NCBI GenBank assembly: GCA_048320885.1
Contig: JBLWFJ010000001.1
Coordinates: forward strand, 1,285,642 to 1,349,641
Source: Nannocystaceae bacterium ST9
GTDB lineage: Bacteria; Myxococcota_A; Polyangia; Nannocystales; Nannocystaceae
Reading direction: 5' to 3'
DNA length: 64,000 nt
Of this stretch, positions 7,339 through 54,698 are shown in pieces. How positions within the stretch are numbered: the stretch's first letter is position 1; each line of letters starts with the position of its first letter. The notes below the pieces were generated by a model that saw only the letters and a program-made list of their open reading frames with translations, was not told where the DNA came from and made no database searches. The translations under genes were made by a program, and so were the position numbers.

Positions 7339-7661
7339 ATGACGAATGGGTTACGGCGCCGCACGCCGCCTCGTCGCGCGCGGCTCCTGCCCCTCGCCCT
7401 GCCCTTCGCCGCGTGTCCGGCCTTCCCCGACCCGGTCGACTTCTCGGCTCACGGGACTCGCGGCGTGCTCGAGGTCGAGACGCTCGACGGGCTCTCGCCA
7501 CCGGCTCACGCGGGTCGACGCCGACGACATCGCGCCTCATCGAGCCGTCGGATTCGAACTGCCCCGTGATGCTCGATGGCAATCACGCGATCGTCGATTG
7601 CACCGATCCCCTCGGGTCGATTCGCATGTCGATTGTCGACTCCGGCGAAATCCGCGGTTGA
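7339..7661 (+). pseudogene. degenerate, frameshifted remnant of a paralogue of lipoprotein 17809..18666
   Basis: GVLEVETLDGLS (frame 1) matches SVLEVETLDGFS, and VMLDGNHAIVDCTDPLG (frame 2) matches VMLDGNHALVGGTPGTD of the 17809..18666 product; the roughly 110 aa between the motifs is missing. Confidence 0.5.
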
Positions 7662-8338
7662 TTCGACGTTCGTCTGGCGATTGGAATCGAGCGTAACGAG
7701 CATTTCCAATCGTCACGGCGCGCGCGAGCGAAGGCGCGAAATCGATGGCGCGCAAGTTTGTCGCCGACATCGAGACCATTGACAAACGTAATTGAACCCA
7801 CTGATTCTCGACGTCGAATGCGCGGCGACGGCCGCTATCGCTCGCTAAATCCCCCGCACGGGGCGCATCTTCGGAACCGACTCGTCCTCGCCCGCGACCT
7901 GCGGGTTCGAGTCGAAGAAATTGTCTCGTTTCGAAGAACAACCTCGCGCGATGTCGAGCTGATCCGTCGATCTTTGCTCGATAGCAAGCAGCTTTCGAGT
8001 CGAGAGCGCTCAACCATGTTCCAAACGATAATTCGTACCAAAAGCCAGGTCGTTCTCTCGGGCTCACATCCTTCCAAATCGAACTACACACCTGAAATTT
8101 CTGCTGTTTTATCCTTTCTCTCGCAAAAACTGCGGGTACTGATGACCCCGCTCGTGCGGCTCGGCCTGCCCGCTGTCCGGTCGGGGTGGTACTCAAGCCC
8201 CCGTCGCCAGGTGCTTTTGCACGTATCCACGAACGTCCTCGATGACCACGAATCAATCCACCCGCCCATTCGCCGGGATTTTCCCGGCCACGATTTCACC
8301 TTCGAATATTTTCACCGAATGCCACGAGGTGGCGTCGC
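7580..8338. other. AT-rich segment (roughly 45-50% GC) without convincing CDS
   Basis: Visibly AT-richer than the flanks; only short, low-GC3 ORFs. Confidence 0.5.
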
Positions 8339-8896
8339 ATGAGTAGCCGCATCGACACGCGAATCGTGCGACTCTTCGACCCGAACTGGAAGCCGTCCAT
8401 GATCGGCGCTCGTCGGTCCGTCCATCTCGGCGACACCGCGCTTGCCGACACCGCCGAAGTGATCGCCAGCCAGCCTCGGATCGACCCGCTGCTCTCGCTC
8501 GCGCGCCACCGCCAGCTCGAGGCCCTGCGCTCCTCGGGCTGTCGAACCCTCGATTGTGGCTGGGCCCGCGAGGTCGCGCGCGAGGTCGCTCGAATGAGCG
8601 AATGCGATTGGCATCGAGGCCCGGCCCTCGCCGTTCGCCTGCACGAGCCCGGCGGCTCCGTGGTGTGGACCCGGTTGCTCCGAATCACGAGCGATCGGGT
8701 CTGGCTGAGCCCGCAAGCCGGGCTCGAGCTCGGAGTCCGCGTCGTGATCGAGCGCGACGACCCCGTCAGCGACACCCACATCGAGATCGCCGGCCATTGC
8801 AGCGAATCCACGCGCGAATCCATCATCGTATGTACCGACGGTCATTCGACGATCGTCCGGCCAGCGATCGCAATCTGCGACCATCGATTCGAATGA
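8339..8896 (+). CDS. hypothetical protein
   Basis: 185 aa ORF with moderate GC3, next to the AT-rich segment; no recognised motifs. Confidence 0.35.
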   Translation: MSSRIDTRIVRLFDPNWKPSMIGARRSVHLGDTALADTAEVIASQPRIDPLLSLARHRQLEALRSSGCRTLDCGWAREVAREVARMSECDWHRGPALAVRLHEPGGSVVWTRLLRITSDRVWLSPQAGLELGVRVVIERDDPVSDTHIEIAGHCSESTRESIIVCTDGHSTIVRPAIAICDHRFE

Positions 8897-8929
8897 TTTA
8901 ATTTCATCCTCCGTGCTCGACATTTTCGA

Positions 8930-11041
8930 ATGACGGCGCATAGAGATTTCGTCGAACCAATGCATCCCTGCCGACGGGTGGCCCGTCTCGGGATCCTTCT
9001 CGTCACCACGAAAGCGAACAGAAATACCGTGTCCAACCGCAACCGCAACGTCGTCGTTCTCCACACCTCCCGCGCCTTGGTGCCCTTGTGCGTACTCGGC
9101 CTGTTTGGCTGCACCTTCACCACGCCGAGCTCGAGCGGCACCGACATTGGGACCGAAGACGGAGATTCGACCTCCGACGACACCTCCGACGAACACGACC
9201 CCGACGAGCACCACACCCCGGACCACGGCGAGGACGAGACCGAGACGACCGAGACCGGCGAGGGCGAGACCGGGACCAGCGAGACCGGCGAGCCCGAGGG
9301 CGAATGCGGCGACGGCCAGGTCGACGCGGGCGAAGATTGTGACGATGGCAATTCGATCAATGCCGATTCCTGCACCAACGTCTGCGAATCCTCGGCCTGC
9401 GGCGACGGCCACGTGCAGCCGGGCGAGCAGTGCGACTCGGGTGCCGACAACGGCCCCGGCCAAGCTTGCACCGACGCCTGTCTGGTCAACGTGTGTGGCG
9501 ACGCCGATGCCGGGCCCGGTGAGGCCTGCGACGACGGCAACCCGGTCGACGACGACGGCTGCACCAACCTGTGCGCGCTGCCGACCTGCGGCGACGGTCT
9601 CCTGCAGGCGGGCGAAGATTGTGACGACGGCAACCCGGTCGACGACGACGATTGCCTGAGTACCTGCGTGACCCCGAGCTGCGGCGACGGCATCTTGTAC
9701 TACGCCCAAGAGGCGTGTGACCAAGGCGCCCTGAACTCCGACCAGGCCGAGTGCACGGCCGCCTGCCTCTACAACGTGTGCGGCGATGGCCTGCCCTGGA
9801 GCGACGTCGAGGCCTGTGACCTCGGGGTCGAGAACGGCCCCGACGCGGCCTGCCTCGAGGGCTGCACGCTGGCCGCTTGCGGCGACGGCTTCGTCGGGCC
9901 CGAGGAGGCCTGCGACGACGGCAACCTCGACGAGAGCGACGGATGCAGCGCGCTGTGCCAGCTCGAGAGCTGTGGCGACGGCATCGTGCAGTCGGGCGAG
10001 CAGTGCGACGACGCCGACCTCGACGAGACCGACGAGTGCACGACGCACTGCGCGATCCCGATCTGTGGCGACGGCCTGCTCCTGCCCGAGGTCGAGGAGT
10101 GCGACGAAGGCCTGTTCAACGCCAACGAGGGCGGGTGCACGCTCGGCTGCACGCTCGCGAAGTGCGGCGACGGCCTGGTCGAGCTCGACGTCGAGCAATG
10201 CGACCTCGGGCCGGCCAACGCCGACGATGGCGTGTGCAAGACGGATTGCAGCGATCAGGCCTGTGGCGACGGCCTGGTCGGCCCCGGCGAGAGCTGCGAC
10301 GACGGCAACAAGATCAACGACGACGACTGCACCAACGCCTGCGCGCCGGCGAGCTGCGGCGACGACATCCTGCAAGCCGGCGAGGCCTGCGACGACGGCA
10401 ACGCGATCGACGACGACGCCTGCACCAACGCCTGCACCGCGGCGGCCTGCGGCGACGGCATCCTGCAGGCCGGCGAGGCTTGCGACGAGGGGCTCGCCAA
10501 CGCCGACGACGCCCAGTGCACGGCCAGCTGCGTGCTCGCGACTTGCGGCGACGGCCTGGTCTGGGCGGTCGGCGACGAGCAGTGCGACGACGGCAACGCG
10601 ATCGAGGACGACGCCTGCACCAACGCCTGCAGCGAGCCGGCGTGTGGCGACGGCGTCCTGCAAGTCGGCGAAGAATGCGACGACGGCGGGTCGATCGACG
10701 AGGCCTGCTCCGACACCTGCAGCCTGCCGGCCAGCGAGTGCGCCGGGATCACGCTCGACCCCGGCAACGGCGTGCTGGGCTGCTGGTACTCGGCGGGCGA
10801 GCTCGACCTGAGCTGCGACCAGGTCTGTGCCCCGCACGGCGGGTTCGATGCCCTGGCCTCGCAGCACCTCGGCAACCCGCTCGGCACGCTGGTCTGGCCG
10901 GACAAGACCGACGGCGGCGTCTGGGAGTCGATCGAGTGCTCGTCGACCGACAACGACACCAACTGGGGCGCGAACGGTCAGGCCCCGGACTCGACCTGGC
11001 ACCATTCGGCCTGCTACGTCCATTGCGCGTGCGTGCAATGA
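8930..11041 (+). CDS. secreted lipoprotein with myxobacterial Cys-rich repeats (TIGR02232/DUF4215 type)
   Basis: Signal plus lipobox-like LCVLGLFGC; acidic S/T/D/E linker; roughly 18 repeats of about 30 aa built on CGDG...QxGExCDDGN...DDxCTxxC; distinct Cys-rich C-terminal domain. The true start may be downstream of the first ATG. Confidence 0.8.
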   Translation: MTAHRDFVEPMHPCRRVARLGILLVTTKANRNTVSNRNRNVVVLHTSRALVPLCVLGLFGCTFTTPSSSGTDIGTEDGDSTSDDTSDEHDPDEHHTPDHGEDETETTETGEGETGTSETGEPEGECGDGQVDAGEDCDDGNSINADSCTNVCESSACGDGHVQPGEQCDSGADNGPGQACTDACLVNVCGDADAGPGEACDDGNPVDDDGCTNLCALPTCGDGLLQAGEDCDDGNPVDDDDCLSTCVTPSCGDGILYYAQEACDQGALNSDQAECTAACLYNVCGDGLPWSDVEACDLGVENGPDAACLEGCTLAACGDGFVGPEEACDDGNLDESDGCSALCQLESCGDGIVQSGEQCDDADLDETDECTTHCAIPICGDGLLLPEVEECDEGLFNANEGGCTLGCTLAKCGDGLVELDVEQCDLGPANADDGVCKTDCSDQACGDGLVGPGESCDDGNKINDDDCTNACAPASCGDDILQAGEACDDGNAIDDDACTNACTAAACGDGILQAGEACDEGLANADDAQCTASCVLATCGDGLVWAVGDEQCDDGNAIEDDACTNACSEPACGDGVLQVGEECDDGGSIDEACSDTCSLPASECAGITLDPGNGVLGCWYSAGELDLSCDQVCAPHGGFDALASQHLGNPLGTLVWPDKTDGGVWESIECSSTDNDTNWGANGQAPDSTWHHSACYVHCACVQ

Positions 11042-11143
11042 GTCGATGAATCCGAGCCGGGCCGCTCCCCCTCGGCCCGGCTCGGATTCACGCTCCGATT
11101 CCGATTCCAGCCACCGATTCTAGACCCCCCGAAAGAAACGACG

Positions 11144-12832
11144 ATGCGAATTCGACCACTCCACGATTGGCGATGTCCACGATTGAGCCTCGAGACCCTC
11201 GCGCTGATCTTCGAATGCAGCCTGACGTTGGGCTGCGTCGTGCTCGGGCCCAAGGGCTCGGGCGACGAACAGGGCGAGAGCAGCGGCGATACCAGCGACG
11301 ACGACGAGGATCCGAGCGAGGACTCGAGCGACCCGACCAGCGGGGGCGATTCCACCGACCCCGACGGCACCGACGGCACCGACGGCAGCGACGGCACCGA
11401 CGGCACCGGCACCGACGGCGAGCCCGATGCCCCGGTCTGTGGTGATGGCCGGGTCGACCCCGGCGAGGGCTGCGACGACGGCAACCTCGTCGACGACGAC
11501 GCGTGTTCGAACGCGTGCGCCCCGGCGACCTGTGGCGACGCCATCTTGCAAGTCGGCGAGCAATGCGACGACGGCAACCTCGTCGACGAAGACGGCTGCC
11601 TGAACGACTGCGCCGCGGCGACCTGTGGCGACGCCGTCGTGTGGGCGAACGTCGAGGTCTGCGACTTCGGGCCGGCCAACTCCGACGAGGGCGGCTGCAC
11701 GCTGGCGTGCGCGCTGCCGATCTGTGGCGACGGCTTCGTGCAGGACGGCGAGCAGTGCGACGCCGGGCCCGACAACGGCAGCGAGGGCTACTGTCTGCCC
11801 GGCTGCGTCGAGAACGAATGTGGCGACGGCCACGAGGCCCCCGACGAGCCCTGCGACGACGGCAATGGCATCCCCGGCGACGGCTGCTTCGGCTGTCGGC
11901 TCGAGCGCTGCGGCGACGGGATCATCGAGGCCGGCGAGGCCTGCGACGACGGCAACCTCGACGAGGACGACGGCTGCACCAGCGTGTGCTTGCTGCCGAC
12001 CTGCGGCGACGGGTTCGTCCAGCAGGGCGAGCAATGCGACGCCGGCGAGAACAACGGCGACGACGAAGCCTGCACCCGCCACTGTCAGATCGCGACCTGC
12101 GGCGACGGCCTGATCTGGGCGGAGTTCGAGACCTGCGATCAGGGCCCCTTCAACGCCGACGACGGCGCCTGCACCTCGGCCTGCAAGGCCGGCATCTGCG
12201 GTGACGCGCTGGTCGGGCCCGGCGAGCTGTGTGACGACGGCAACGCGATCGACGACGACGGCTGCACCAGCACCTGCACGGTCGCGAGCTGTGGCGACGG
12301 GGTCGAACAGGCGCCCGAGGCCTGCGACGACGGCAACGGCGTCGGCGAGGACGCGTGCAGCAACGCGTGCACGCTGGCGACCTGCGGCGACGGGCTGCAG
12401 CAAGCCGAAGAGAGCTGCGATCTCGGCTCGCTCAACGGCATGTCGGCCTGGTGCACCCCGCTCTGCCACGCGCAGGTCTGCGGCGACGGCATCTACTTCC
12501 CGCTCGGCGGCGAGGAGTGCGACGACGGCAACGCGATCGAGAGCGACGGCTGCAACGGCGAGTGCGACGAGGCCGAGTGCGGCAACGGGCACCTCGAGCT
12601 GCCCGAGCAGTGCGACGACGGCAACGCGATCGAGGGTGACGGCTGCACCAACGCCTGCCTCGAGCAGATCTGCGGCGACGGAGTCGTGCAGGCCGGCGAG
12701 GCCTGCGAAGACGGCAACCTGCTCGGACAGACCTGCGACTCGATCAGTCAGGGCGAGCTGCCCTTCGGCGAGCTCGGCTGCGACGCCAGCTGCAAGCCGA
12801 CGACCGATGCCTGCAGCGCGGAGGGAGGCTGA
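11144..12832 (+). CDS. secreted lipoprotein with myxobacterial Cys-rich repeats (second paralogue)
   Basis: Lipobox LTLGC; acidic low-complexity linker (GSGDEQGESSGDTSDDDEDPSEDSSD...); 14 or more CGDG repeats; first gene of a tightly coupled operon. Confidence 0.8.
   Translation: MRIRPLHDWRCPRLSLETLALIFECSLTLGCVVLGPKGSGDEQGESSGDTSDDDEDPSEDSSDPTSGGDSTDPDGTDGTDGSDGTDGTGTDGEPDAPVCGDGRVDPGEGCDDGNLVDDDACSNACAPATCGDAILQVGEQCDDGNLVDEDGCLNDCAAATCGDAVVWANVEVCDFGPANSDEGGCTLACALPICGDGFVQDGEQCDAGPDNGSEGYCLPGCVENECGDGHEAPDEPCDDGNGIPGDGCFGCRLERCGDGIIEAGEACDDGNLDEDDGCTSVCLLPTCGDGFVQQGEQCDAGENNGDDEACTRHCQIATCGDGLIWAEFETCDQGPFNADDGACTSACKAGICGDALVGPGELCDDGNAIDDDGCTSTCTVASCGDGVEQAPEACDDGNGVGEDACSNACTLATCGDGLQQAEESCDLGSLNGMSAWCTPLCHAQVCGDGIYFPLGGEECDDGNAIESDGCNGECDEAECGNGHLELPEQCDDGNAIEGDGCTNACLEQICGDGVVQAGEACEDGNLLGQTCDSISQGELPFGELGCDASCKPTTDACSAEGG
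12823..12827 (+). promoter_or_regulatory. GGAGG ribosome-binding site for 12835..13254
   Basis: gagGGAGGctgatcATG; the upstream TGA stop is 2 nt before the ATG. Confidence 0.5.
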
Positions 12833-12834
12833 TC

Positions 12835-13254
12835 ATGAAACGCCGCGCTCGCGTCCTGGTCCACGAGGAGCTGGTCGGCCTGCTCCGACGAGCCAGCGTT
12901 CGCGCCGAGGTCGTCAACCTCGCGCGCGAGACCTGGCCGAGCGAGCCCGAGGCGCTCGAGCAGCTCGACCTGCTGGCCGACTACGCGTGGGTCGCCGCGG
13001 CCGACGAGACCGCGACCCCGTCGGTCGGCGGGCGCGTGCGGATCGAGCTCTTGATGCGGGCGGCCTCGTTGGCCCGCCTGCTCTGCCTGCACCTCGAGTT
13101 GCTCGCCCGCGAGCCGGTCGGCGCGCGGCGGGTGCTCGAGCTGGCCGAGCGGTTGGTCTGGGGCGAGCTCGACGAGTCCGAGAGTCGCCTGCCGGTCAAG
13201 TCGCAGCGCTGGCGCACTCATGTCCGCGCGTGGACCCGCGCGTTCGGATCATGA
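12835..13254 (+). CDS. hypothetical protein, paralogue A of a tandem pair
   Basis: 139 aa; paralogous to 13347..13841 (RVRIELLMRAASLARLL...LELAERLVWGELDESE vs RLRVALLMRAASLSNLL...LALAEAIAWSDLPKSE). Confidence 0.6.
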   Translation: MKRRARVLVHEELVGLLRRASVRAEVVNLARETWPSEPEALEQLDLLADYAWVAAADETATPSVGGRVRIELLMRAASLARLLCLHLELLAREPVGARRVLELAERLVWGELDESESRLPVKSQRWRTHVRAWTRAFGS

Positions 13255-13300
13255 TCGAATCATGATCATGCCAATCGAATCATGATCATGCCAATCGAAT
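13249..13300. repeat. 20 bp tandem repeat (catgatcatgccaatcgaat, about 2.5 copies)
   Basis: Direct tandem repeat in the 92 bp gap between paralogues A and B. Confidence 0.7.
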
Positions 13301-13346
13301 CCACGGATCAAAGTCTTCGACCCGCTCACCGAATGATGGTGCTGAC

Positions 13347-13841
13347 GTGACCCTCAACCACAAGATCGATTTTCCGGCCCTCAAAGTCAACCAGATCGGC
13401 GAGCGAGCGCTCGCGTTGATCTCCAACGAGCTCGTATTTCTGCTCTCGACCGCGAAAGCTCCGGCCGAGCTGCTCGCCCGCGCGAGCGCGAGTTGGAAGC
13501 ACGATTGCGACGTCGCCGGTCGGCTCGCCGAATTGACCGACGAGATCTGGGCCGCGGCCTCGCAGGAGGCCGCACTACCCGCCAACGGGGCGCGCCTGCG
13601 CGTCGCCCTGCTGATGCGCGCGGCTTCGCTGAGCAACCTGCTGCGCATATTCGTCGAACTGCGGGAGGCCGAGGTCGCCAGCGCCGAGCAGGTCCTGGCC
13701 TTGGCCGAGGCGATCGCGTGGAGCGATCTTCCGAAGTCGGAGTTTGCCGAGGCACCCCCGCCGAGCCGCGCCCGTGCGGCCCTGGGCTGGCAGTCTCACG
13801 TGCGCGACCTGGCCGTGCGAATGCGGGTGCTGGCGCGATGA
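13347..13841 (+). CDS. hypothetical protein, paralogue B of a tandem pair
   Basis: 164 aa, GTG start; paralogous to 12835..13254. Confidence 0.6.
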   Translation: MTLNHKIDFPALKVNQIGERALALISNELVFLLSTAKAPAELLARASASWKHDCDVAGRLAELTDEIWAAASQEAALPANGARLRVALLMRAASLSNLLRIFVELREAEVASAEQVLALAEAIAWSDLPKSEFAEAPPPSRARAALGWQSHVRDLAVRMRVLAR

Positions 13842-13966
13842 TGGTCGCGATCCTGATCGCCGCGGCGATCCTCTTGGTCCTGTTGGTGTCGACGTTGGTG
13901 TCGATCGCCATCCTCCACCTGAAGAACGACGAGCGGCGGTCACGCTCGTCACGAAGGAATCGATGA
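13838..13966 (+). CDS. small single-TM protein (42 aa)
   Basis: MMVAILIAAAILLVLLVSTLVSIAILHLKNDERRSRSSRRNR; ATGA overlap with the upstream stop, and its stop overlaps the PilZ ATG (ATGA). Confidence 0.4.
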   Translation: MMVAILIAAAILLVLLVSTLVSIAILHLKNDERRSRSSRRNR

Positions 13967-14463
13967 TGGGTCGAGAACTCCAGACAGCCGCCGAATCGCG
14001 AATCCGCGTCTCTCACCAGATCGAGATCGCATGGAACGAGGTCATGCAGGACGAGAGCATCGTGCTCTCGCTGCACCTGTATCGACGGCTCCGCGCTCGC
14101 GGCTTGCGCGGCGGATCTTCGCCCGGCGACCAGGCCATCCTCGACCGGATCGAGCCGTGGATCCGCTCGCCCAACCCCGTCAACCCGCTCGGATATCGAC
14201 GATTCAAGTGCTCGTTGCCCGGCACCCTCGAGTTCACCGTCCACGGCCTGACGATCAGCCAAGCGATCACGCTGGTCGACATGTCGGCGACCGGCGCCCG
14301 GGTCCACGCGATCGAGGGGCTCGCGCTCGGCGAGCGAATCCACCTGCGAATCCCGCAACGGATCTTCGGTGATTCGCTGCTGAGCTGGCACGCCAACGTC
14401 GTCTGGGCCAAGGACGGGCACGTCGGCATGCACTTCCTCGAGATCGAAGCCGCCACCCGATAG
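13963..14463 (+). CDS. PilZ domain protein (c-di-GMP receptor)
   Basis: RRFK (RxxxR) and LVDMSATGARV (DxSxxG) PilZ motifs; 166 aa. Confidence 0.7.
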   Translation: MMGRELQTAAESRIRVSHQIEIAWNEVMQDESIVLSLHLYRRLRARGLRGGSSPGDQAILDRIEPWIRSPNPVNPLGYRRFKCSLPGTLEFTVHGLTISQAITLVDMSATGARVHAIEGLALGERIHLRIPQRIFGDSLLSWHANVVWAKDGHVGMHFLEIEAATR

Positions 14464-14474
14464 CCGAGCGAATC

Positions 14475-15923
14475 ATGCCACGCCTCAAGAAACCCGCCGG
14501 CGGCGCCCGAATCGCGATCATCGACGACGATCCCGAGCTGCTGCTCAGCACTCGACGCCTGCTCGCCGACGAGGGCCACACCGTGCAGGCCGTCGCGACG
14601 GCGAGCGCCGGGATCGAGCTCGTCCGCGAATTCAAGCCTCAGCTCGTGTTGCTCGACTACTACCTCGGCTCGGGGATCGGCGCCGACGTCGTTCGCAGCA
14701 TTCGACGCTTCGACGACATGGTGCAGGTCCTGCTGGTCACCGGCTACGCCGCCGAGCAGCCCGCCCGCAAGCTGCTCGAAGAGCTCGACATTCAAGGGTA
14801 TCACGACAAGGCCGACGGCCCCGAGCGCCTGCTGGTCTGGGTCGCGGCGTCGCTGAAGCACGCCCGGCTGCTCGAACGCATGAATCGACAGCAGGGGTAC
14901 TTGCGGCGAATCCTCGACGCGACCCCGCGAATCAGCACGCTGCAGGCGGCCACCAGCCTGCTCGACGTGGCCCTGCGCAGCCTGTCCGAGATCCTGCAAG
15001 GCGGCGACGGGCTGATCGCCACCGAGAACAACGGCCTCTTCGTGCTCGACGACGCGACCCGCGGGGTCAGCCTGCACGCGGGGACCGGCCAATTCGCCGG
15101 GGTCGACGAGTTCTCGCGGCTGGCCCCCGAGCTGGTCGCGATCGTGCGCGAGGGCTTCGACCTCGAGCGGCCGACCCTGCACGCGCGCGGCTACGTGCTC
15201 GTGCCCCTGCGGACCCGGACCGGCGCGCGCGGGTGCATGGCCGTCGAGACCCCGAGCTTCCCCGACGAGGCGATCGATCCGGCCGAGATCTTCGGACGAC
15301 AAGTCGTCCAGGCGCTCGAGAACATCGTGCTCTACGAGCGCGCCACCGTCGATCCGCTGACTCGGCTCTTTCATCGATCGTTCGGGATGCAGCGGCTGAC
15401 CGAGACCCTGCGGCTGGCCACCCGACTGGCGACGCCGACCTCGGTGTTGATGATCGACGTCGACCACTTCAAGCGGCTCAACGACACGCACGGGCACGCC
15501 GCCGGCGATCTGGCCTTGCGGATGATCGCTCGGGTGATCGCGGGCGCGTGTCGATCGACCGACATCGTCGCCCGCTTCGGCGGCGAAGAGATGTTCGTGG
15601 TCTTGCCGGCCACGCCGCGGGACGGCGCGATCACCCTCGCCACTCACGTCGCCGAGTGCGTGGCGAACACCCGCATCGAATTCGAAGGCAGCCAGCTCGC
15701 GTGCACCGTGTCGATCGGCGTGAGCACCCAGCCGCCGACCGGGCCCGAGCTGGCCATCGACGCCGACGCGCTCGTCCGGCGTGCCGACCTCGCCATGTAT
15801 CGAGCGAAGACCACCGGGCGAAACCGAGTGTGCGAGGCCGCTCGCGACCCGATCACGACCGACCACGAATTGAACGAGGGAGCGCCGTGCCCTACGCATT
15901 CGACAGTTCGATCCATCCATTGA
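14475..15923 (+). CDS. response regulator REC-GAF-GGDEF diguanylate cyclase
   Basis: REC (IAIIDDDPELL...LLDYYLG); central GAF-like region; GGDEF domain with RFGGEEMFVV and RYGGEEF-type context (HGHAAGD). Confidence 0.85.
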   Translation: MPRLKKPAGGARIAIIDDDPELLLSTRRLLADEGHTVQAVATASAGIELVREFKPQLVLLDYYLGSGIGADVVRSIRRFDDMVQVLLVTGYAAEQPARKLLEELDIQGYHDKADGPERLLVWVAASLKHARLLERMNRQQGYLRRILDATPRISTLQAATSLLDVALRSLSEILQGGDGLIATENNGLFVLDDATRGVSLHAGTGQFAGVDEFSRLAPELVAIVREGFDLERPTLHARGYVLVPLRTRTGARGCMAVETPSFPDEAIDPAEIFGRQVVQALENIVLYERATVDPLTRLFHRSFGMQRLTETLRLATRLATPTSVLMIDVDHFKRLNDTHGHAAGDLALRMIARVIAGACRSTDIVARFGGEEMFVVLPATPRDGAITLATHVAECVANTRIEFEGSQLACTVSIGVSTQPPTGPELAIDADALVRRADLAMYRAKTTGRNRVCEAARDPITTDHELNEGAPCPTHSTVRSIH

Positions 15924-16315
15924 TCCTGCTGGCCCTCAGCGGCCGAGTCACCGGCGAGGAGTGGGCCCAGATGTTTTCGGACATCGACGATGTGCTCGCG
16001 GCCGGGCGGCCCTTCGCCGTCGTCTGCGACGCGACTCAGATCAAGCTCCCCGACGTGCCCGAGCTGCGCCGATGCGCCGAGTTCATGCGCCTGCGACGAG
16101 TGCGATTGGAGCCGCTGCAGCTCGGGATCGCGTGCGTCACCCGCTCGGCGATGATCCGGGGCGCGCTCAAGGGCGTCGCGCGAATGAGCTCGTGCGCGGT
16201 CCCGGTGATGGCGCTCGATTGTCCGCGCGAGGCGCTGGCGTGGGCGGGCGCTCGAATCGAGGGCAAGCGGGCCCGCGACACGCGATTGGGGTCGAGCGCG
16301 ACGAGGATGCCATGA
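15887..16315 (+). CDS. hypothetical STAS-like (anti-sigma-antagonist fold) protein
   Basis: 142 aa, GTG start with GAGGGAG 6 nt upstream; hydrophobic/charge pattern L.L.G....ID.VL..G.PFAVV.D...I resembles STAS; overlaps the GGDEF gene by 37 nt, and its stop overlaps the HK ATG. Confidence 0.45.
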   Translation: MPYAFDSSIHPLILLALSGRVTGEEWAQMFSDIDDVLAAGRPFAVVCDATQIKLPDVPELRRCAEFMRLRRVRLEPLQLGIACVTRSAMIRGALKGVARMSSCAVPVMALDCPREALAWAGARIEGKRARDTRLGSSATRMP

Positions 16316-17676
16316 TCGACGTTCTTCGCGATCGGCTCCCCGCCCTGCTTCGTCCGGTCCCCGACGACGAGCTGCCGCACCTCGCGACTCGAATGACCCG
16401 AGGCGTACGCGCGATGACGGCGACCTCTGCCCTGGTCAGCCCGATGTTCGCCCTGGTCGCCTGGGCGAGCGGCATGACGACGCCGCTCGACGCCCTGGCC
16501 TCGGCGCTCGCGTTCACCTCCGGGTTCGGGTTTCTCTACGTGCTGGCCGGCACCGCGCACGGACGCGCGAGGCCCCAGCCGATGGCCTTCCTCGCCATGC
16601 TGCTCACCGTCGCCGGCACCACGTTCGCCGGCGAATTCGCCAATGGCATGAATTCCATCACCACCTATGTGGTCGCCGTCCCGCTGGTGGCGAGCGCGTT
16701 CTTTCCCTGGCATCCACGCTGGTCGTTCGGACTGGGCGGGATCGCTATCGTCGGCCCCTTGCTGCTGGTCCCCGACGACATCATGGTCCCCGCTCAGGTC
16801 TATCTCAGCCTCGGGTTCACCTATACGCTGCTCGCCGGCACGGCCAACCAGGTGCACCGCCGACTCTGGCTCGAGCTCGAGCACGCGCGCCAGAGCCTGA
16901 TCGCCTTCGATCGAATGTCGGCGCTCGGTCGCATGCTCGCCGGGATCGCGCACGAGCTGAAGACGCCCGCCGCAGCGACCGCGAACAGCCTGGCCCACAT
17001 CAAGGCGCTCGCATGCGAGCTGCGCGACAGCATCGGCCACCCGGAGGTCGACGACGACGATCTGCACGAGATCACCCGCGAGATCGCGGAATCGGCCGAT
17101 CTCGCGGTCCGAGCGACCGAGCGATGCGGTCGATTCCTGCAAGCCATTCGGGCCCAGACGGTCGGGATGAACCACAGCGAAGTCGTCGAATTCGACGTCG
17201 GCGTGCACGTGACGAATTGCGTGGCGCTGCTCGAATACAAGGCGAGGCGGGCCGGGCTGCAGATCGAGCTGGCGATGGATGTCGCGACCATGAAGGGAGA
17301 CCCCGGAAAATTCGAGCAGGTGGTCACCAACCTGCTCGCCAATGGGCTCGAGGCCTGCGCGACCGCCAATCGTGGGACCACGGTGCGGGTGGAGATCCAC
17401 CAGTCCACCGGCGGGATCCTGCTCGCGGTCGAAGACGACGGACCGGGCGTCCCGACCGACTTCTCGGAGCAGATCTTCGAGCCGCTCTTCACCACGCGCA
17501 CGGCGACGGGCGGAACGGGGCTCGGCCTGAGCATCGCCCGCGACATCGTCGAAGGTGTGTTCGGCGGCACGCTGCGACTCGCCGACGCGATTCGCGGGGC
17601 GAGGTTCGAGGTCTGGGTGCCGAGGGAAGGCGCTCGCGTGGCGACCTCGCACGCGTTCACGCCCGGCTCGAGCTGA
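16312..17676 (+). CDS. membrane sensor histidine kinase
   Basis: Multiple TM helices; HisKA H-box (IAHELKTPAAA); HATPase_c (GGTGLGLSIARDIVEG). Confidence 0.8.
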   Translation: MIDVLRDRLPALLRPVPDDELPHLATRMTRGVRAMTATSALVSPMFALVAWASGMTTPLDALASALAFTSGFGFLYVLAGTAHGRARPQPMAFLAMLLTVAGTTFAGEFANGMNSITTYVVAVPLVASAFFPWHPRWSFGLGGIAIVGPLLLVPDDIMVPAQVYLSLGFTYTLLAGTANQVHRRLWLELEHARQSLIAFDRMSALGRMLAGIAHELKTPAAATANSLAHIKALACELRDSIGHPEVDDDDLHEITREIAESADLAVRATERCGRFLQAIRAQTVGMNHSEVVEFDVGVHVTNCVALLEYKARRAGLQIELAMDVATMKGDPGKFEQVVTNLLANGLEACATANRGTTVRVEIHQSTGGILLAVEDDGPGVPTDFSEQIFEPLFTTRTATGGTGLGLSIARDIVEGVFGGTLRLADAIRGARFEVWVPREGARVATSHAFTPGSS

Positions 17677-17808
17677 ACGCGATCGGGCCCGCACGCCGGC
17701 AGGCCGCCGCGGCCCTCGTCGCGGGCGCCTTCGAAGCGGACCTGGCCGAGTTCGCGGGCGGCGAAGCCATCACGGGCGAAGCCATCACGAATGGGCTAAA
17801 CCTTTGTC

Positions 17809-18666
17809 GTGCGCAGCCCTTCGATCCTGCCCCTCGCCTTGCTACTGCCCTGCGCCGCGTGTGGACGCGTCGGTGGAGAGACCGACGACGAAGTCGGCGA
17901 GACCGCGGGGACCGACGCGACCAGCGAGGACTCGGGCTCGTCCGACGCGAACAGCGAGGACTCGTCCGACATGAGCAGCGCGTCCGATTCGACCAGCGAT
18001 GGCGTCGACTCGACCGACACCGGCGACTCGACCGACACCGGCGATCCCGACTGTCCGGCCTTCCCCGCCGACCCGGCCGAGTTCAGCTACTCGATCGACG
18101 TCCCGGGCGTGGATCCCTGGGAGGTCGACGTGCGCTGGACCTGCAGCGTGCTCGAGGTCGAGACCCTCGATGGATTCTCGCTCACGCTCGACTGCCCCGA
18201 CGCGCCCGAGCCGGTCACGCTCTCGATCCTGACCGACCCGCTGCTGAATCCGCCGCTCGCCATCGGCGACGTCGTCGACCTGAGCTACGTGATCCAGGCA
18301 TCTTGGTGGCAGAGCACCTACGTCCGGCTGGACCTGCAAGGCGTCGGCCATCTGCTCACGTTGATCGACGCCGACTCGATCATGCCCTTCCAGTCCGTCG
18401 CGTTCGAGCTGCCCTTCGAGATCACCACGATCACGGATCTGTGCGAGGTTCAGAACTGGGACTGTGGCCAGCGCGAGCGGCTCGGGCTGGCGTTCGAGAT
18501 CGGCGGAGAGGCGGTCGTGATGCTCGATGGCAATCACGCGCTCGTCGGCGGCACCCCGGGCACCGACGTCTGGGTCGAAGAGGCCGGGCGCCTGCACGAC
18601 ATCGTGTGCACCGACATCCCCGGGGATTGGTACCGGGTGCTGATCGCCGACACCGGCTCGGAGTAG
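17809..18666 (+). CDS. hypothetical lipoprotein with acidic S/D/T-rich linker
   Basis: GTG start; LLLPCAAC signal/lipobox-like; low-complexity SEDSGSSDANSEDSSD linker; a paralogue remnant lies at 7339..7661. Confidence 0.65.
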   Translation: MRSPSILPLALLLPCAACGRVGGETDDEVGETAGTDATSEDSGSSDANSEDSSDMSSASDSTSDGVDSTDTGDSTDTGDPDCPAFPADPAEFSYSIDVPGVDPWEVDVRWTCSVLEVETLDGFSLTLDCPDAPEPVTLSILTDPLLNPPLAIGDVVDLSYVIQASWWQSTYVRLDLQGVGHLLTLIDADSIMPFQSVAFELPFEITTITDLCEVQNWDCGQRERLGLAFEIGGEAVVMLDGNHALVGGTPGTDVWVEEAGRLHDIVCTDIPGDWYRVLIADTGSE

Positions 18667-50064: not shown

Positions 50065-52961
50065 GACGAAGGCCCCATGGCCGCGAGCACGCCCGGCAGG
50101 CCGGTCGCGCGGCGATCGAGGCTGGGCACGACCCGCGCGACTTCGAAGATCCGCTTGGCGCTCGGCGGGATCCGGCGGCCCGTGGGCGTGCGGACGACGA
50201 CCGGGAAGTAGCCGCTCTCGATCGCGCTGACGAAGGCGAGCGCGAACCCGGCCGCGGCCTGCACGACCGTCCAGACGTTGCCGCGCGCGTCGAGCCCGAG
50301 CGGGGCGGTCGGCACGAAGCCTCGCACGACCGGCGGCGAGGGTCGGTTGCCCGAGCGCGGCGGCGGGCGCTTGAGATACTCGAGCCGCAGCGCGCCGACC
50401 GAGACCGGCGCGGGCAGACGCAGCGCCGCGGGATCGCTGCGCATGACCTGCTCGACCGCCAGCGCGTAGAGCCCGAGCTGCAAGTGCGTGCCCGCGCGCA
50501 GCTCGGCCTGCAGCGCGGCCGGCCAGGCCGGCATGCCGGTCTTGTAGTCGCAGACGTTGACCCGCTGGCGATAGGGATCGATCTCGATCCGATCGATCGC
50601 GGCGGCGAAGGGGATCGATCGCGGGCCGAGCTCGAGCTCGAAGCCCTCGCCCGGCGACCACTCGCTGGCCAGCACGAAGGGCGCCGGGACCAGCTCGTCG
50701 GGCTCGCGCCGGCCTTCGTCGCCGCCGCCCCAGGCCTTGCGCAGCCGGCCGACCCACGACTCCCACCACGCGCTCATCTCGACCGCCCAGCGATCGCGCT
50801 CGCTCGCCCAGATCGCCTCGGCCTGGCCATGCTCGGCGCGCTTGCGATAGCCGGCGTCGAGCGCCGCGAGCACCTCGGCGAGCAGCGGCTCGGCGATCGA
50901 CGCGACCTCGAGCGGCTCGGTCCGACCCGCGAGCCGCTCGGCCAGCGCCCGATCGATCGCCCGGTGCACGACCTGGCCTTGCTCGCTGGCTTGCAGCCCG
51001 CCCGCGTCGGGCTCGCGACCCTCGCGCTGACCGAGCCCGAGCACGCGCTCGACGAAGTAGCGGAAGGGCAAGCCGGCGTAGCTCTGCAGCGTGCTCGCCG
51101 AGTAGATCGCCGGCGGGATCGCGAGTCCGAGCGCGCCGGTGTGCGGACCGACGATCGCGGCCTCGTGGCTGCGGATCGCCTGCACGCGGCGGGTGAGCTC
51201 TTCGCTCGCCCCGACGCCCGCGAGCTCGCGCTCGATCGGCGCGATCGGCTTGCTCGGCTCGCCGACCGCGAGCGCGATCGCATCGACCCCGACCGCCACG
51301 CAGCGGCCCTGCTCTCGCTCGTCTTGCCGACCGGCGATCCAGGGCCCGGGCGCGAGCTCGTTGCCGGCCCCGTCGCTGCGGCGATGGCTGGCGATCACCC
51401 GGCCCGGAAAGCTCGCGACGATCGCGTCGAGCCGACGCAGCTCGCCGGCGAAGCGGCGCGCCTCGCCGACCAGGCCGATCCGCTCGCGCAGCGAGTCGGA
51501 CAGCGGCGCATGCAGGCGCGGGATCGGATGGCGATCGAGCCCGGTCATGAACACGCGCGCCGGCAGGCGATCGAGCACCGCGTCGTAGGGCAGCAACCAC
51601 ACCGGCGCCGGCCCACGCTCGGACTCGTGCTCGATCCACTCGCCGGCCGCCGCGAGGTGGAGGGCGTGATCGATCGCGATCGCCAGCTCGGCGCGGGTCG
51701 GCGGCGTCACGCCGCTCGCGTCGTCGGCCAGGCGCGCGAGCGTGTCCTCGATCGCCCGCGCGGCCGTCCGCTCCGCGCCCGCGCCATGCAGGCTCGCGCG
51801 CGCGAGCAGCTGCCAGTCGTCGAGCAGATCCTGCAATGCGCTCGCGCTCGGCTCGGCCCGCCAGCGCGCCAGTCGTTCGATCGCCGTCGCGATCGCCAGC
51901 TCGGCCGCGCCCTCCGATCCGCGCAGACGATCGACCAGCGCGTCGAGCCCGATCGCCGCGCCGCGCTGGCGCTCCCATGCCCGGCGCAGCCCGGCGACGT
52001 CGACCCCCTCGGGCAGCTCGGTCCAGGGGCGCAGCGCCGGACCGAAGAGCAGCGCGTCGAGATCGTCGCGGCGGGCGAGCGGCTGATCGGCGATCCGCAG
52101 CAGCGCACGCGTGGCCCGAGCCGCGGCGCTCGAACGGGCCGGGCGAGTCACCCACGCGCGAACCGGGATGTCGCGATGGCGCAGGCGGGCCGCCCAACGA
52201 TCGATCATGTCGGCCGGCGCGAGCAGGGCCGCCGCCTCGCCGCCGGTCCGCAGCAGGCGAGCGATCGCGGCGATCTCGGCCTCGGGCCCCGCACACTCGA
52301 GCCGCATCGCCAGCGATCCGCGACCTCGGCCGGGCAGCTCGAGCGCCCACGACTCGAACCCGAGCCGGGCGATCAGCTGCTTCTCCCACGCGGCCACGGC
52401 CTCGCCCTCGAACCCGATCGCGATCGCGGCCGCCCGCCGGTTCAGAAACGCGACCCGCTCGTGTCCGGCCAGCACCCGCGCGAGCGCCTGACCCCGCCAC
52501 CAGCTCCCGCCGCCGCGCTCGGCCAGCCGCTCGTCGATGCCGACGCGAAAGCGGGCGAACGCGTCGAGCAGCGCGCGGTCGCGGCTCTCGGGCTCGCTCG
52601 CGGCGATCAACCTGGCGAGGTCGAGCTCGCCGATCGCCAACACCCGCTCGAGCTCGACGAACGCGCCCAACAGCTCGCGCTGGTAGCCGCCGTGGTCGGC
52701 CAGCGCGGCGAACTCGGCCGCCAGCGAGCGCCGGACCTCGGCGAGCACGTGCAACATCGGCAGCCCGGGGCCCGCGAGCTCGACGGCCGCCTCGCTCAGC
52801 AGCGCGTCGGGATCGAGCACGCGCACGCCGACCAGGGTCGCCCGCTCGACGAGCAGGCTCTGCAACCATCGCGCCGCCGCTGCGCCGCGGACCAACACCA
52901 GCACCCGCCCCGGGCTGTGCCTGTCGATCCGCGCGAGCAGCCGGGCGAGCAGATCCTCCAT
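50061..52961 (-). CDS. AddB-like PD-(D/E)xK nuclease subunit (degenerate helicase-like N-region)
   Basis: 966 aa from MEDLLARLLARIDRH; RecB-type nuclease motif VCDYKTG...LQLGLYALA near the C-terminus; stop overlaps the AddA-like ATG (ATGA). Confidence 0.7.
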   Translation of the reverse strand: MEDLLARLLARIDRHSPGRVLVLVRGAAAARWLQSLLVERATLVGVRVLDPDALLSEAAVELAGPGLPMLHVLAEVRRSLAAEFAALADHGGYQRELLGAFVELERVLAIGELDLARLIAASEPESRDRALLDAFARFRVGIDERLAERGGGSWWRGQALARVLAGHERVAFLNRRAAAIAIGFEGEAVAAWEKQLIARLGFESWALELPGRGRGSLAMRLECAGPEAEIAAIARLLRTGGEAAALLAPADMIDRWAARLRHRDIPVRAWVTRPARSSAAARATRALLRIADQPLARRDDLDALLFGPALRPWTELPEGVDVAGLRRAWERQRGAAIGLDALVDRLRGSEGAAELAIATAIERLARWRAEPSASALQDLLDDWQLLARASLHGAGAERTAARAIEDTLARLADDASGVTPPTRAELAIAIDHALHLAAAGEWIEHESERGPAPVWLLPYDAVLDRLPARVFMTGLDRHPIPRLHAPLSDSLRERIGLVGEARRFAGELRRLDAIVASFPGRVIASHRRSDGAGNELAPGPWIAGRQDEREQGRCVAVGVDAIALAVGEPSKPIAPIERELAGVGASEELTRRVQAIRSHEAAIVGPHTGALGLAIPPAIYSASTLQSYAGLPFRYFVERVLGLGQREGREPDAGGLQASEQGQVVHRAIDRALAERLAGRTEPLEVASIAEPLLAEVLAALDAGYRKRAEHGQAEAIWASERDRWAVEMSAWWESWVGRLRKAWGGGDEGRREPDELVPAPFVLASEWSPGEGFELELGPRSIPFAAAIDRIEIDPYRQRVNVCDYKTGMPAWPAALQAELRAGTHLQLGLYALAVEQVMRSDPAALRLPAPVSVGALRLEYLKRPPPRSGNRPSPPVVRGFVPTAPLGLDARGNVWTVVQAAAGFALAFVSAIESGYFPVVVRTPTGRRIPPSAKRIFEVARVVPSLDRRATGLPGVLAAMGPSS

Positions 52962-53195
52962 CGTCGGCGTACAGATAACCCAATCGGGCCCCGACCGGAC
53001 GGCTCCAAATGGCTCGCCGGCCCTGCGCTCGGGCGAGATCTCTCGCTCTCGTGCCGAAACGGAGATCTGCACCTCGGTCTCGCGACCGACGCGAGCTCGG
53101 ATCGGCGTACGGCGATCGTCTTCCACGCTCGCCCACCCGCGACGCGGCGAGAGCACTGCTTGACATGCCCAGTGGCCACCCCGAGCCTGTTTGCG

Positions 53196-54698
53196 ATGTC
53201 TCGTTCGCCTCGCCATTCGCTCTCTCTCGTCCTCTTCGTTGGTTCGTTCGGTCTGGCTTGCAAGGGTGGTGGTGAGACCGACTCTCGCGGTGACACGGTC
53301 GGCTCGACCGCCGAGGACACCAGCGCCGACACCTCGACCGACACCTCGACCACCAACGTCGCGACCACGGAAGACGACGCGACGACCCAGAGCCCCGCCA
53401 CCTGCGGCGACGGTCAGGTCGACGAGGGCGAGGAGTGCGACGACGCCAACGACGTCGACACCGACGCCTGCACCAACAGCTGCACCAACGCGATCTGTGG
53501 CGACGGGATCGCGCAAGCCGGGGTCGAGGCCTGCGACGACGCCAACACCGTCGACACCGACGCCTGCACCAACGCGTGCGCCAACGCGACTTGTGGCGAC
53601 GGCATCGTCGAGGACGGGGTCGAGACCTGCGACGACGGCAACGCCGACGACACCGACGACTGTCCGACCAGCTGCGCGCCGGCCAGCTGCGGCGACGGCT
53701 TCGTGCAAGCCGGCGTCGAGGCCTGCGACGACGGCAACACCGACGACAGCGACGGCTGCGTCGCCGGCTGCGTCGCCGCAGGCTGTGGCGACGGCTTCGT
53801 CCAGAACCGGGTCGAGGCCTGCGACGACGGCAACGACGTCGACGACGACGCCTGCACCAACGCCTGCGCGCTGGCCAGCTGCGGCGACGGGATCGTCCAG
53901 ATGGGCGAGGAGTGCGACGACGACAACGCCGTCGACACCGACGCCTGCCCGAGCAATTGCCTCACGGCGACCTGCGGCGACGGCTTCGTGCAAGCCGGCG
54001 TCGAGACCTGCGACGACGCGGGCGAGTCGGACGTGTGTGACGCCGACTGCAGCGCGGCGAGCTGTGGCGACGGCGTGCTCAACACCAGCGCCGGCGAGGC
54101 GTGCGACGACGGCAACATGATCGACACCGACGCGTGCGTCAGTGACTGCGCCGACGCCAGCTGCGGCGACGGATACGTGCGAGCCGGGGTCGAGGAGTGC
54201 GACGACGGCAATGGCGTCGACGACGACCAGTGCGCCAACGACTGCACCGAGAACACCTGCACGCCCACGGGCCAGCGCGCGCCCTTCGTCACGATCGGCA
54301 ACGACACCGCGAGCGGCTGCTGGAACGGCAACCCCTGCGCGTTCGACAGCTTCGCGTGGGATGCCTCCCACGGCCAGGACTTCCAGGCCTTCGACCAGGG
54401 CGTGACCTGTTCGGGCGCCACGACCTGCGTCGCCAACGTCGGCATCACCACCTACAACAGCGGCAGCGTCTGCCAGGGCAAGTGGGACGTGCTCTGCGAC
54501 GGCCAAGTCGTCGGCTCGATCAACACGATCGGGGTGGCTTGCAGCGGCTCGGCCATGAACAACGCCTGCCGGGCGACCTTCCCGGCCATCGAGTGCGCCA
54601 GCATCCGGCTGGTCGCCGTGCAGGACAACGACGTGACCACGGGCTGCTGCGGCGGATCCAACCCCGACTCGATGATCACGGGCGTCAGCGCCTGGTAG
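53196..54698 (+). CDS. secreted lipoprotein with myxobacterial Cys-rich repeats (third paralogue) and a distinct Cys-rich C-terminal domain
   Basis: Signal/lipobox-like FVGSFGLAC; acidic T/S/D linker; about 10 CGDG repeats; roughly 150 aa non-repeat C-terminal domain. Confidence 0.8.
   Translation: MSRSPRHSLSLVLFVGSFGLACKGGGETDSRGDTVGSTAEDTSADTSTDTSTTNVATTEDDATTQSPATCGDGQVDEGEECDDANDVDTDACTNSCTNAICGDGIAQAGVEACDDANTVDTDACTNACANATCGDGIVEDGVETCDDGNADDTDDCPTSCAPASCGDGFVQAGVEACDDGNTDDSDGCVAGCVAAGCGDGFVQNRVEACDDGNDVDDDACTNACALASCGDGIVQMGEECDDDNAVDTDACPSNCLTATCGDGFVQAGVETCDDAGESDVCDADCSAASCGDGVLNTSAGEACDDGNMIDTDACVSDCADASCGDGYVRAGVEECDDGNGVDDDQCANDCTENTCTPTGQRAPFVTIGNDTASGCWNGNPCAFDSFAWDASHGQDFQAFDQGVTCSGATTCVANVGITTYNSGSVCQGKWDVLCDGQVVGSINTIGVACSGSAMNNACRATFPAIECASIRLVAVQDNDVTTGCCGGSNPDSMITGVSAW

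Follow-up and report, generated by a model that had tools for sequence, protein, structure and literature searches.

A block of eight consecutive plus-strand genes, g1 to g8, occupies positions 11144-17676 of the 64-kb stretch of the Nannocystaceae bacterium ST9 genome analysed here (the window), and we propose, with a probability of about 0.6, that it is a lineage-specific operon-like block whose functional core is an ordinary two-component circuit of cyclic diguanosine monophosphate (c-di-GMP) signalling with orphan genes around it. A membrane histidine kinase (g8), a REC-GGDEF diguanylate cyclase (g6) and a PilZ protein (g5), encoded together in one coupled block, make a local c-di-GMP circuit plausible. 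All eight open reading frames (ORFs), which a first-pass annotation had called from the letters alone, carry a clear coding signal. The window is about 69% G+C, for which a strong bias towards GC at third codon positions (GC3) is expected of genuine genes, and GC3 was found to be 0.84-0.92 in the own frames of all eight ORFs, compared with 0.50 in the gap between g2 and g3 and likewise 0.50 in a competing out-of-frame ORF at 17013-18728.

The cyclase g6 (14475..15923, plus strand, 482 aa, GC3 0.89) is a response regulator of the architecture REC-DUF3369-GGDEF, and is predicted to be a diguanylate cyclase with the GG(D/E)E catalytic residues in place. It had been described as REC-GAF-GGDEF, of which the two outer domains were recovered above their cutoffs while the middle one did not appear as a GAF profile. 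The receiver domain matched PF00072 with 56 bits (cutoff 30), residues D17/D18, D61, T89 and K112 are all present, and this DDDTK pattern is shared by the full-length homologues of g6. In the middle region GAF_3 reached only 23.7 of the 27 bits that its cutoff demands, and the profile which actually fits is DUF3369 (42.2 bits, cutoff 27.2), a domain that is GAF-like by HHpred and typical of REC-containing c-di-GMP enzymes (bioRxiv 10.1101/2021.11.05.467447). The C-terminal domain matched PF00990 with 136 bits and TIGR00254 with 156 bits, and in its alignment with WspR (3bre; E 1.5e-30) the GGEEM of g6 stands against the GGEEF of WspR, the DxxxxxND region is conserved and the RxxD feedback I-site (RSTD) lies in register, five residues before GGEEM. 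Homologues of g6 have F, L or M at the fifth active-site position (GGEEF, GGEEL or GGEEM), and the closest full-length ones (L003, L004; Deinococcus) have GGEEL, this position being variable in the subfamily. All NCBIfam equivalog cutoffs were missed widely (150 bits were obtained for PleD versus a cutoff of 474), and g6 is therefore not orthologous to any named cyclase.

The last gene of the block, g8 (16312..17676, plus strand), encodes a protein of 454 aa with a polytopic membrane N-terminus of about 190 aa, where hydropathy and sequence indicate that the loops are short and that a large periplasmic domain is missing. That it is a membrane histidine kinase, as the first-pass annotation had it, is borne out by this N-terminus, by a HATPase_c match (E 9e-23, 81 bits), and by the H-box HELKTP together with NLLANG, DDGPGV and GGTGLGLS for the N, G1 and G2 boxes. 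HisKA remained sub-threshold (17.8 bits versus a cutoff of 26.9), and NCBIfam models of AtoS/ZraS-like kinases align over residues 191-439. We found a g8-type kinase gene directly beside the g6 homologue in Deinococcus hohokamensis (L004) and in a metagenome-assembled genome of Chloroflexota (L006), and adjacent or nearby in the loci L003 and L005; none of the kinase-cyclase loci L003-L006 has g7, g5 or g2/g3. That the homologues adjoin in Deinococcus and Chloroflexota supports the view that g8 is the cognate kinase of g6, the two forming a pair of a widespread two-component type. The best match to g6 was 37% identical and came from Deinococcus, in a scan of the genome collection by exact 8-residue patterns, a method that may overlook orthologues of intermediate identity.

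The third member of the putative circuit, g5 (13963..14463, plus strand, 166 aa), has a family-less N-terminal extension of 77 aa followed by a C-terminal PilZ domain at residues 78-165. The PilZ assignment made earlier holds, as g5 matched Pfam PilZ (PF07238; E 1.3e-9) over profile positions 5-92 with 38.7 bits against a cutoff of 22.5, and its counterpart P0004, from an uncultured relative described below, also matched PF07238. A search of PDB sequences gave no match for g5. Myxococcus xanthus has 24 PilZ proteins, of which 14 stand alone and are poorly conserved beyond close relatives (PMC8316039), so that lineage-specific PilZ genes can be considered normal in the phylum; among them, PlpA is a precedent for a stand-alone PilZ protein without binding (PMC8316039).

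In the proposed circuit, g8 would autophosphorylate the histidine of HELKTP upon a membrane-associated cue and would then phosphorylate Asp61 in the receiver domain of g6 by phosphotransfer, as suggested by the adjacency of kinase and cyclase genes in ST9 and in other phyla. The GAF-like DUF3369 linker would relay the signal, and the GGDEF domain, going by its GGEEM and intact RxxD motifs, would make c-di-GMP, for which g5 would be the most likely local receiver. More speculatively, g4 and/or g7 might modulate the kinase g8, and g2/g3 might be partners or targets of the PilZ protein. Several observations weigh against such a circuit. The Pfam alignment of g5 begins only at profile position 5, and by eye its RxxxR motif seems incomplete (PLGYRRFKC, where no two R stand four positions apart), which makes c-di-GMP binding by g5 uncertain. 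The gene g7 intervenes between g6 and g8, while homologous pairs elsewhere are directly adjacent. Moreover, a sister lineage seems to do without the cyclase at this locus while keeping PilZ and the orphan genes, and given this deletion the orphan genes may not be dependent on the g6 cyclase.

Four genes of the block are orphans. The first two, g2 (12835..13254, plus strand, 139 aa, helical, its ATG 2 nt past the g1 stop) and g3 (13347..13841, plus strand, 164 aa, GTG start), were rightly recognized as encoding paralogous small proteins, as they share 40% identity (E 6e-24). g2 had no match in Pfam, NCBIfam or PADLOC; g3 has a predicted four-helix-bundle core and was found to have neither a transmembrane segment nor a signal peptide. 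The third, g4 (13838..13966, plus strand), encodes a single-pass membrane micropeptide of 42 aa with a basic C-terminal tail. This micropeptide, already called in the earlier reading, is supported by its translation, by a hydropathy of 3.09 over residues 1-30 (one strongly hydrophobic helix), by a GC3 of 0.86 and by a counterpart in the relative. The fourth, g7 (15887..16315, plus strand, GTG start), encodes an alpha/beta protein of 142 aa which is weakly SpoIIAA/STAS-like. It matched the SpoIIAA-like family PF11964 over profile positions 4-104 of 106 with E 0.0036 and 18.4 bits, the gathering cutoff being 25, and g7' of the relative gave a like weak match. Its single-sequence AlphaFold2 model was unusable, with a predicted local distance difference test score (pLDDT) of 44 and an alternating strand/helix pattern at low confidence, and no match was obtained in the PDB sequence search. 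The claim that g7 is STAS-like thus could not be sustained and stays a lead, the resemblance being possible. Taken together, g2, g3, g4 and g7 are lineage-restricted, under purifying selection and probably encode accessory partners.

A partner-switching-like layer, in which a STAS-like g7, and possibly g4, would bind and gate g8, has to be weighed at this point; it would be compatible with the two-component c-di-GMP core. STAS antagonists of GHKL kinases (SpoIIAA/SpoIIAB) and the small membrane protein MgrB acting on PhoQ would be analogues. In its favour, the stop of g7 overlaps the start of g8 in an ATGA, both g7 and g7' cover nearly the entire PF11964 profile, the g7 model alternates strand and helix, and g8 is polytopic with no periplasmic sensor domain while the single-pass g4 lies in the same coupled block. 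However, the PF11964 score stays under the gathering cutoff, the model has the pLDDT of 44 given above and no solved structure matched by sequence, and g8 is a canonical HisKA-type kinase rather than a Ser kinase of the SpoIIAB type. We regard this layer as a tentative and somewhat unlikely addition.

The relative mentioned above is represented by two short contigs with an identical overlap from one uncultured source, L001 (Logan SRR11487824) and L002 (JGI 3300081837), which together give the gene order g2' (C-terminus)-g3'-peptide'-PilZ'-g7'. Amino-acid identity to ST9 is 74-80%, and the ratio of nonsynonymous to synonymous substitution rates (dN/dS) is 0.25-0.50 for each gene, the peptide included. 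The C-terminal 55 aa of g2' are 80% identical to g2 (dN/dS 0.33); the peptide has 37 aa owing to an in-frame deletion of 15 nt, with ATGATG junctions on both sides (dN/dS 0.44 over 36 codons); PilZ' (P0004) is of full length, 166 aa, and 80% identical to g5 (dN/dS 0.25); and g7' is 77-79% identical to g7 (dN/dS 0.50). Metagenome scans with a four-sequence alignment and with an exact 22-mer from the relative gave no matches. The cyclase is absent from between PilZ' and g7', which are separated by 88 nt. This spacer holds an ORF of 37 codons (L002 659-772) which begins MARLETP and ends DHESKKGAPCPTHSTVRSIH before its stop. The beginning of this ORF matches the first 7 codons of g6 (MPRLKKP; window 14475-14495), and its end matches, in the same frame, the last approximately 20 codons of g6 (DHELNEGAPCPTHSTVRSIH and stop; window 15860-15923). 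As the remnant keeps both ends of g6 in frame, we conclude that the relative has lost about 455 codons of g6 by a deletion that left the frame intact. Insertion of the cyclase in ST9 is less likely, in view of the in-frame ends in the remnant and of the native GC3 (0.89) of g6.

The deletion gives some ground for an explanation in which g2-g3-g4-g5-g7 are a conserved unit independent of c-di-GMP, the PilZ protein being a nucleotide-blind adaptor and the kinase-cyclase pair a separable cassette. Nucleotide-blind adaptors are known also among the PilZ proteins of Xanthomonas and Pseudomonas. The relative keeps g2'-g3'-g4'-g5'-g7' in frame with dN/dS below 1 while only the 37-codon remnant is left of its cyclase, RxxxR looks degenerate by eye in the relative as it does in ST9, and the kinase-cyclase pairs of other phyla stand without g7, g5 or g2/g3. 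On the other hand, the DxSxxG motif of g5 is intact as DMSATG, by eye, and its Pfam PilZ match is well above the cutoff, and RxxxR was read without a structural alignment. The PilZ protein of the relative could get c-di-GMP from other cyclases in its genome, the purifying selection seen in the retained genes may largely predate the deletion, and the g6 of ST9 has a native GC3 and sits close against g5 on one side and g7 on the other. Independence from c-di-GMP is, in our judgement, unlikely.

By their junctions the genes fall into two translationally coupled sub-units. One is g1-g2, the other mini-ORF-g3-g4-g5-g6-g7-g8, and a gap of 92 nt (13255-13346) lies between them. At g1/g2 the TGA at 12830-12832 is followed by TC and the ATG at 12835, with GGAGGGAGG just 5' of the g2 start, so that g2 is served by a strong Shine-Dalgarno sequence located inside g1. 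The g3/g4, g4/g5 and g7/g8 overlaps are each ATGA (13838-13841, 13963-13966 and 16312-16315, respectively), and g6 and g7 overlap by 37 nt (15887-15923) if GTG 15887 is the g7 start. These junctions are as described earlier, save that the g7 start is ambiguous and that the spacer between the TAG stop of g5 (14461-14463) and the ATG of g6 (14475) is of 11 nt and not 12. It was also observed that the 9-mer CGATGATGG, in which two ATG in a row overlap the upstream TGA, builds both the g3/g4 (13834-13846) and the g4/g5 (13959-13971) junctions, and that it does so in the relative as well as in ST9.

As had been noted, the gap between the two paralogues contains a 20 bp tandem repeat (13254..13301, plus strand), which consists of 2.4 perfect copies of ATCGAATCATGATCATGCCA (100% match in Tandem Repeats Finder), each unit containing the 10 bp palindrome CATGATCATG. 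The repeat is unique within the window (0 chance matches expected) and has no special RNA fold. The corresponding gap of the relative is of 50 nt and lacks it, from which a recent expansion can be concluded; the repeat is possibly an operator or an internal promoter region. A sigma-70-like match within it is a minus-strand one, probably of no significance. Further down in the gap is a mini-ORF of 5 codons (13333..13350, plus strand; ATG ATG GTG CTG ACG TGA); its stop and the GTG start codon of g3 overlap. In the two-sequence comparison, the relative has a mini-ORF of equal length, start and stop with different inner codons (L001 207-224; ATG GAC GCA AAG ACG TGA). It is possible that this mini-ORF is a translational coupling or termination-reinitiation device for the GTG-started g3, and its position in both lineages suggests a separate translation-initiation site, possibly also a promoter, within the gap.

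At the head of the block, g1 (11144..12832, plus strand, 562 aa, GC3 0.91) encodes a Cys-rich acidic repeat protein with 61 Cys and 130 Asp+Glu. Its assignment to the DUF4215/TIGR02232 type was correct, with PF13948 matched in 9 units (E 1e-55, 186 bits, cutoff 27) and TIGR02232 in 11 units (E 6e-71, 234 bits, cutoff 20.8). The N-terminus has a hydrophobic segment at 14-36, a lipobox-like LTLGC motif, recognized by eye, and then an acidic linker. Compared with the consensus [LVI][ASTVI][GAS]C the lipobox is imperfect, having atypical -3/-2 positions and a Glu in the h-region, and g1 is probably a secreted lipoprotein. A paralogue lies directly upstream (8930..11041, plus strand, 703 aa, GC3 0.90), with DUF4215/TIGR02232 Cys-rich acidic repeats (Pfam DUF4215 E 2e-52; 13 repeats of TIGR02232), a lipoprotein-like N-terminus and 54% identity to g1 over 411 aa; this gene is probably outside the operon and part of the flanking context. 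Directly after its stop we found a perfect GC-rich hairpin of 18 bp (11047..11090, plus strand) with a minimum free energy of -46.5 kcal/mol and a z of -5.1, none of 200 shuffled sequences folding equally well. It has no T-run, and hence it was not listed by the terminator scan; it is likely to be a transcript boundary or end, or a stabiliser, marking the 5' limit of the cluster. The window holds three DUF4215 genes in all, these two and a third at 50067..54695 (plus strand, 1542 aa with DUF4215 repeats), and among about 14 myxobacterial GGDEF loci that had been fetched at random for another purpose, 2 have a DUF4215 gene within 10 kb of an unrelated GGDEF gene. As DUF4215 is a multicopy family found near unrelated GGDEF genes elsewhere, adjacency of the lipoprotein to the signalling genes is weak evidence of a functional link. 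The coupling of g1 to g2 is seen in the ST9 genome, contig L001 of the relative starting inside g2'. That g1 belongs to the circuit proper seems to us less likely than that it is a bystander from a multicopy family, and its link to the signalling genes is unproven.

The distribution of the gene families is narrow. With a search profile built from g2, g3 and P0002, an exhaustive search of 1.84 billion cluster representatives placed the g2/g3 family in only three lineages, namely those of ST9, of the relative, and of P0006, which comes with two seemingly chimeric variants. None of the 185,579 species-representative (GTDB) genomes contained a relative of g2/g3, and a scan of the metagenome collection gave none either. 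P0006 (GCA_029565745.1) is encoded on a contig of 2.6 kb (L083 1253-1753), between the gene of an HpaB-type monooxygenase and a convergent gene whose product has no Pfam match and by eye resembles flavin-dependent oxidoreductases; no PilZ, GGDEF or DUF4215 gene is adjacent on this contig. P0007 and P0008 (L084, L085) share the C-terminal half of P0006, have unrelated N-termini, come from short contigs and probably arose as chimeras in assembly. Counterparts of g5 and g7 were found only in the relative, by word-index searches in which distant ones may have been missed. Conserved synteny is largely absent, the context of P0006 being different and no g2/g3 relative occurring in the 185,579 genomes. 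The first-pass annotation had suggested a dedicated surface-signalling module, a suggestion that fared poorly, as the same gene set and order occurs in no independent genome and the sole close relative is partial and lacks the cyclase. In the collections searched, the eight-gene arrangement is not a recurrent conserved system and appears confined to a narrow lineage.

These results also bear on the reading that all eight genes are one surface-signalling system, in which the g1 lipoprotein would be either the input of the circuit (surface sensing) or a PilZ-controlled output (display or adhesion). Such a system would agree with the 2 nt between the g1 stop and the g2 start and the strong Shine-Dalgarno sequence inside g1, with the paralogy of g2 to g3, the head of the signalling sub-block, with the lipoprotein-like acidic proteins encoded on both flanks, and with the hairpin, which parts g1 from its upstream paralogue so that g1 groups with g2. 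It is opposed by the third g2/g3 lineage, where signalling genes and DUF4215 genes are both lacking from the neighbourhood, by the multiple DUF4215 genes of the window and their occurrence near GGDEF genes in 2 of about 14 loci, by the dispensability of the cyclase in the relative, and by the g2-g3 gap, the sole junction without coupling; we find this reading distinctly doubtful. Very unlikely is the further proposal that the orphan set g2/g3, g4, g5 and g7 is an undescribed Nannocystaceae c-di-GMP effector or membrane-signalling complex which would couple the kinase-cyclase pair to the display or function of g1, with g4 regulating the kinase.

The local two-component circuit has known counterparts. 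As judged from its domains, the core is a member of a well-known class, a histidine kinase and a REC-GGDEF regulator with a nearby PilZ protein, of which the orphan genes make a lineage-specific variant. Like PleD with PleC/DivJ, WspR with WspE, and DmxB of M. xanthus, g6 has an N-terminal receiver domain with the phospho-acceptor residues and a C-terminal GGDEF domain with RxxD five residues before GG(D/E)E, and as in this class the kinase gene is in the same operon. Unlike PleD (REC-REC) and WspR (coiled-coil stalk), g6 has a single REC and a GAF-like DUF3369, and unlike the named members it has a GGEEM active site and a polytopic kinase from which it is separated by g7. The REC-DUF3369 input module is common to g6 and the RpfY family (REC-DUF3369-HD-GYP, V. 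cholerae VCA0210), in which, however, the output is an HD-GYP phosphodiesterase (an eraser) in place of a GGDEF cyclase (a writer). It has been suggested that DUF3369 passes the signal of REC on to a c-di-GMP-metabolising output, and its occurrence in cyclases has also been reported, with no characterised example given (bioRxiv 10.1101/2021.11.05.467447).

Similar comparisons can be made for the smaller proteins. g5 resembles the stand-alone PilZ proteins (PlpA, PixA, PixB; MapZ/PA4608-type) in being small and cytoplasmic with PilZ as its only recognised domain, and its restriction to one lineage is shared by most of the 24 PilZ proteins of M. xanthus (PMC8316039); it differs from them by its 77 aa N-terminal extension and by a seemingly incomplete RxxxR beside an intact DxSxxG. 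g7 agrees with the SpoIIAA-like PF11964 in its near full-length sub-threshold match, its similar size and a plausible strand/helix pattern, but unlike the SpoIIAA systems the block has no partner Ser kinase or PP2C phosphatase, the neighbour of g7 being a histidine kinase. g4 shares with MgrB and SafA, which act with PhoQ, a length of about 40 aa, one transmembrane helix and being encoded with a membrane kinase; it has no sequence similarity to either and is coupled to g3 and PilZ rather than to the kinase.

If the proposed core is true, the block is one more local c-di-GMP circuit in a phylum with dozens per genome, a useful annotation which would not surprise a specialist, since PilZ and c-di-GMP genes peculiar to single lineages are numerous in Myxococcota (PMC8316039), and no long-standing question is opened or settled by it. 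The orphan four-helix-bundle family was seen in only three lineages among about 15 billion proteins, and the deletion of the cyclase in the sister lineage could offer a natural comparison for whether the PilZ and orphan proteins need g6. The practical gains are a conserved membrane peptide of 42 aa, seemingly missed by NCBI, and corrected starts of PilZ and g7. g3 is 100% identical to ACNOYE_05475 of ST9, and the locus tags from g3 (05475) to g7 (05490) fit only PilZ and the cyclase, for which reason the 42 aa peptide is apparently without NCBI annotation. NCBI starts PilZ at ATG 14044 (139 aa) and g7 at TTG 15920 (131 aa). In the relative, the peptide frame and its junctions are preserved, PilZ' has 166 aa, and g7' begins with an ATG behind GGAG where ST9 has GTG 15887, with a CTG at the position of NCBI's TTG; this conservation supports the longer starts of PilZ and g7 and the peptide over the public gene models.

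The plus-strand block extends beyond the eight genes, including also an ORF at 8339-8896, the upstream DUF4215 gene and a lipoprotein-like gene at 17809..18666 (plus strand, GC3 0.91), 133 nt past g8. The latter encodes an acidic, family-less protein of 285 aa with the lipoprotein-like N-terminus LLLPCAACG and a linker rich in Ser/Asp/Thr, for which Pfam, NCBIfam and PADLOC gave no match. No terminator-like fold was found between g8 and this gene, and it may or may not be co-transcribed with the block. Perfect tandem repeats occur here as well, of 15 bp at 17760-17789 and of 18 bp at 18006-18044. On the other side, about 1 kb at 7350-8340 is of low GC (0.47-0.61 versus 69% for the genome) and has no ORF with coding bias; the ORF 8339-8896 (plus strand, 185 aa, GC3 0.80) follows this stretch. 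The latter was considered as a second PilZ gene and rejected, as it showed no similarity to g5 and no Pfam match. The PADLOC defence search gave no matches, an Rfam scan of 8000-19500 found no family, the c-di-GMP riboswitch included, and a tRNA search across the 64-kb window found none. Elsewhere in the window, a minus-strand gene at 25977-26945 encodes a response-regulator receiver domain fused to a domain of the Mrr_cat restriction-endonuclease type, an unusual two-component output.

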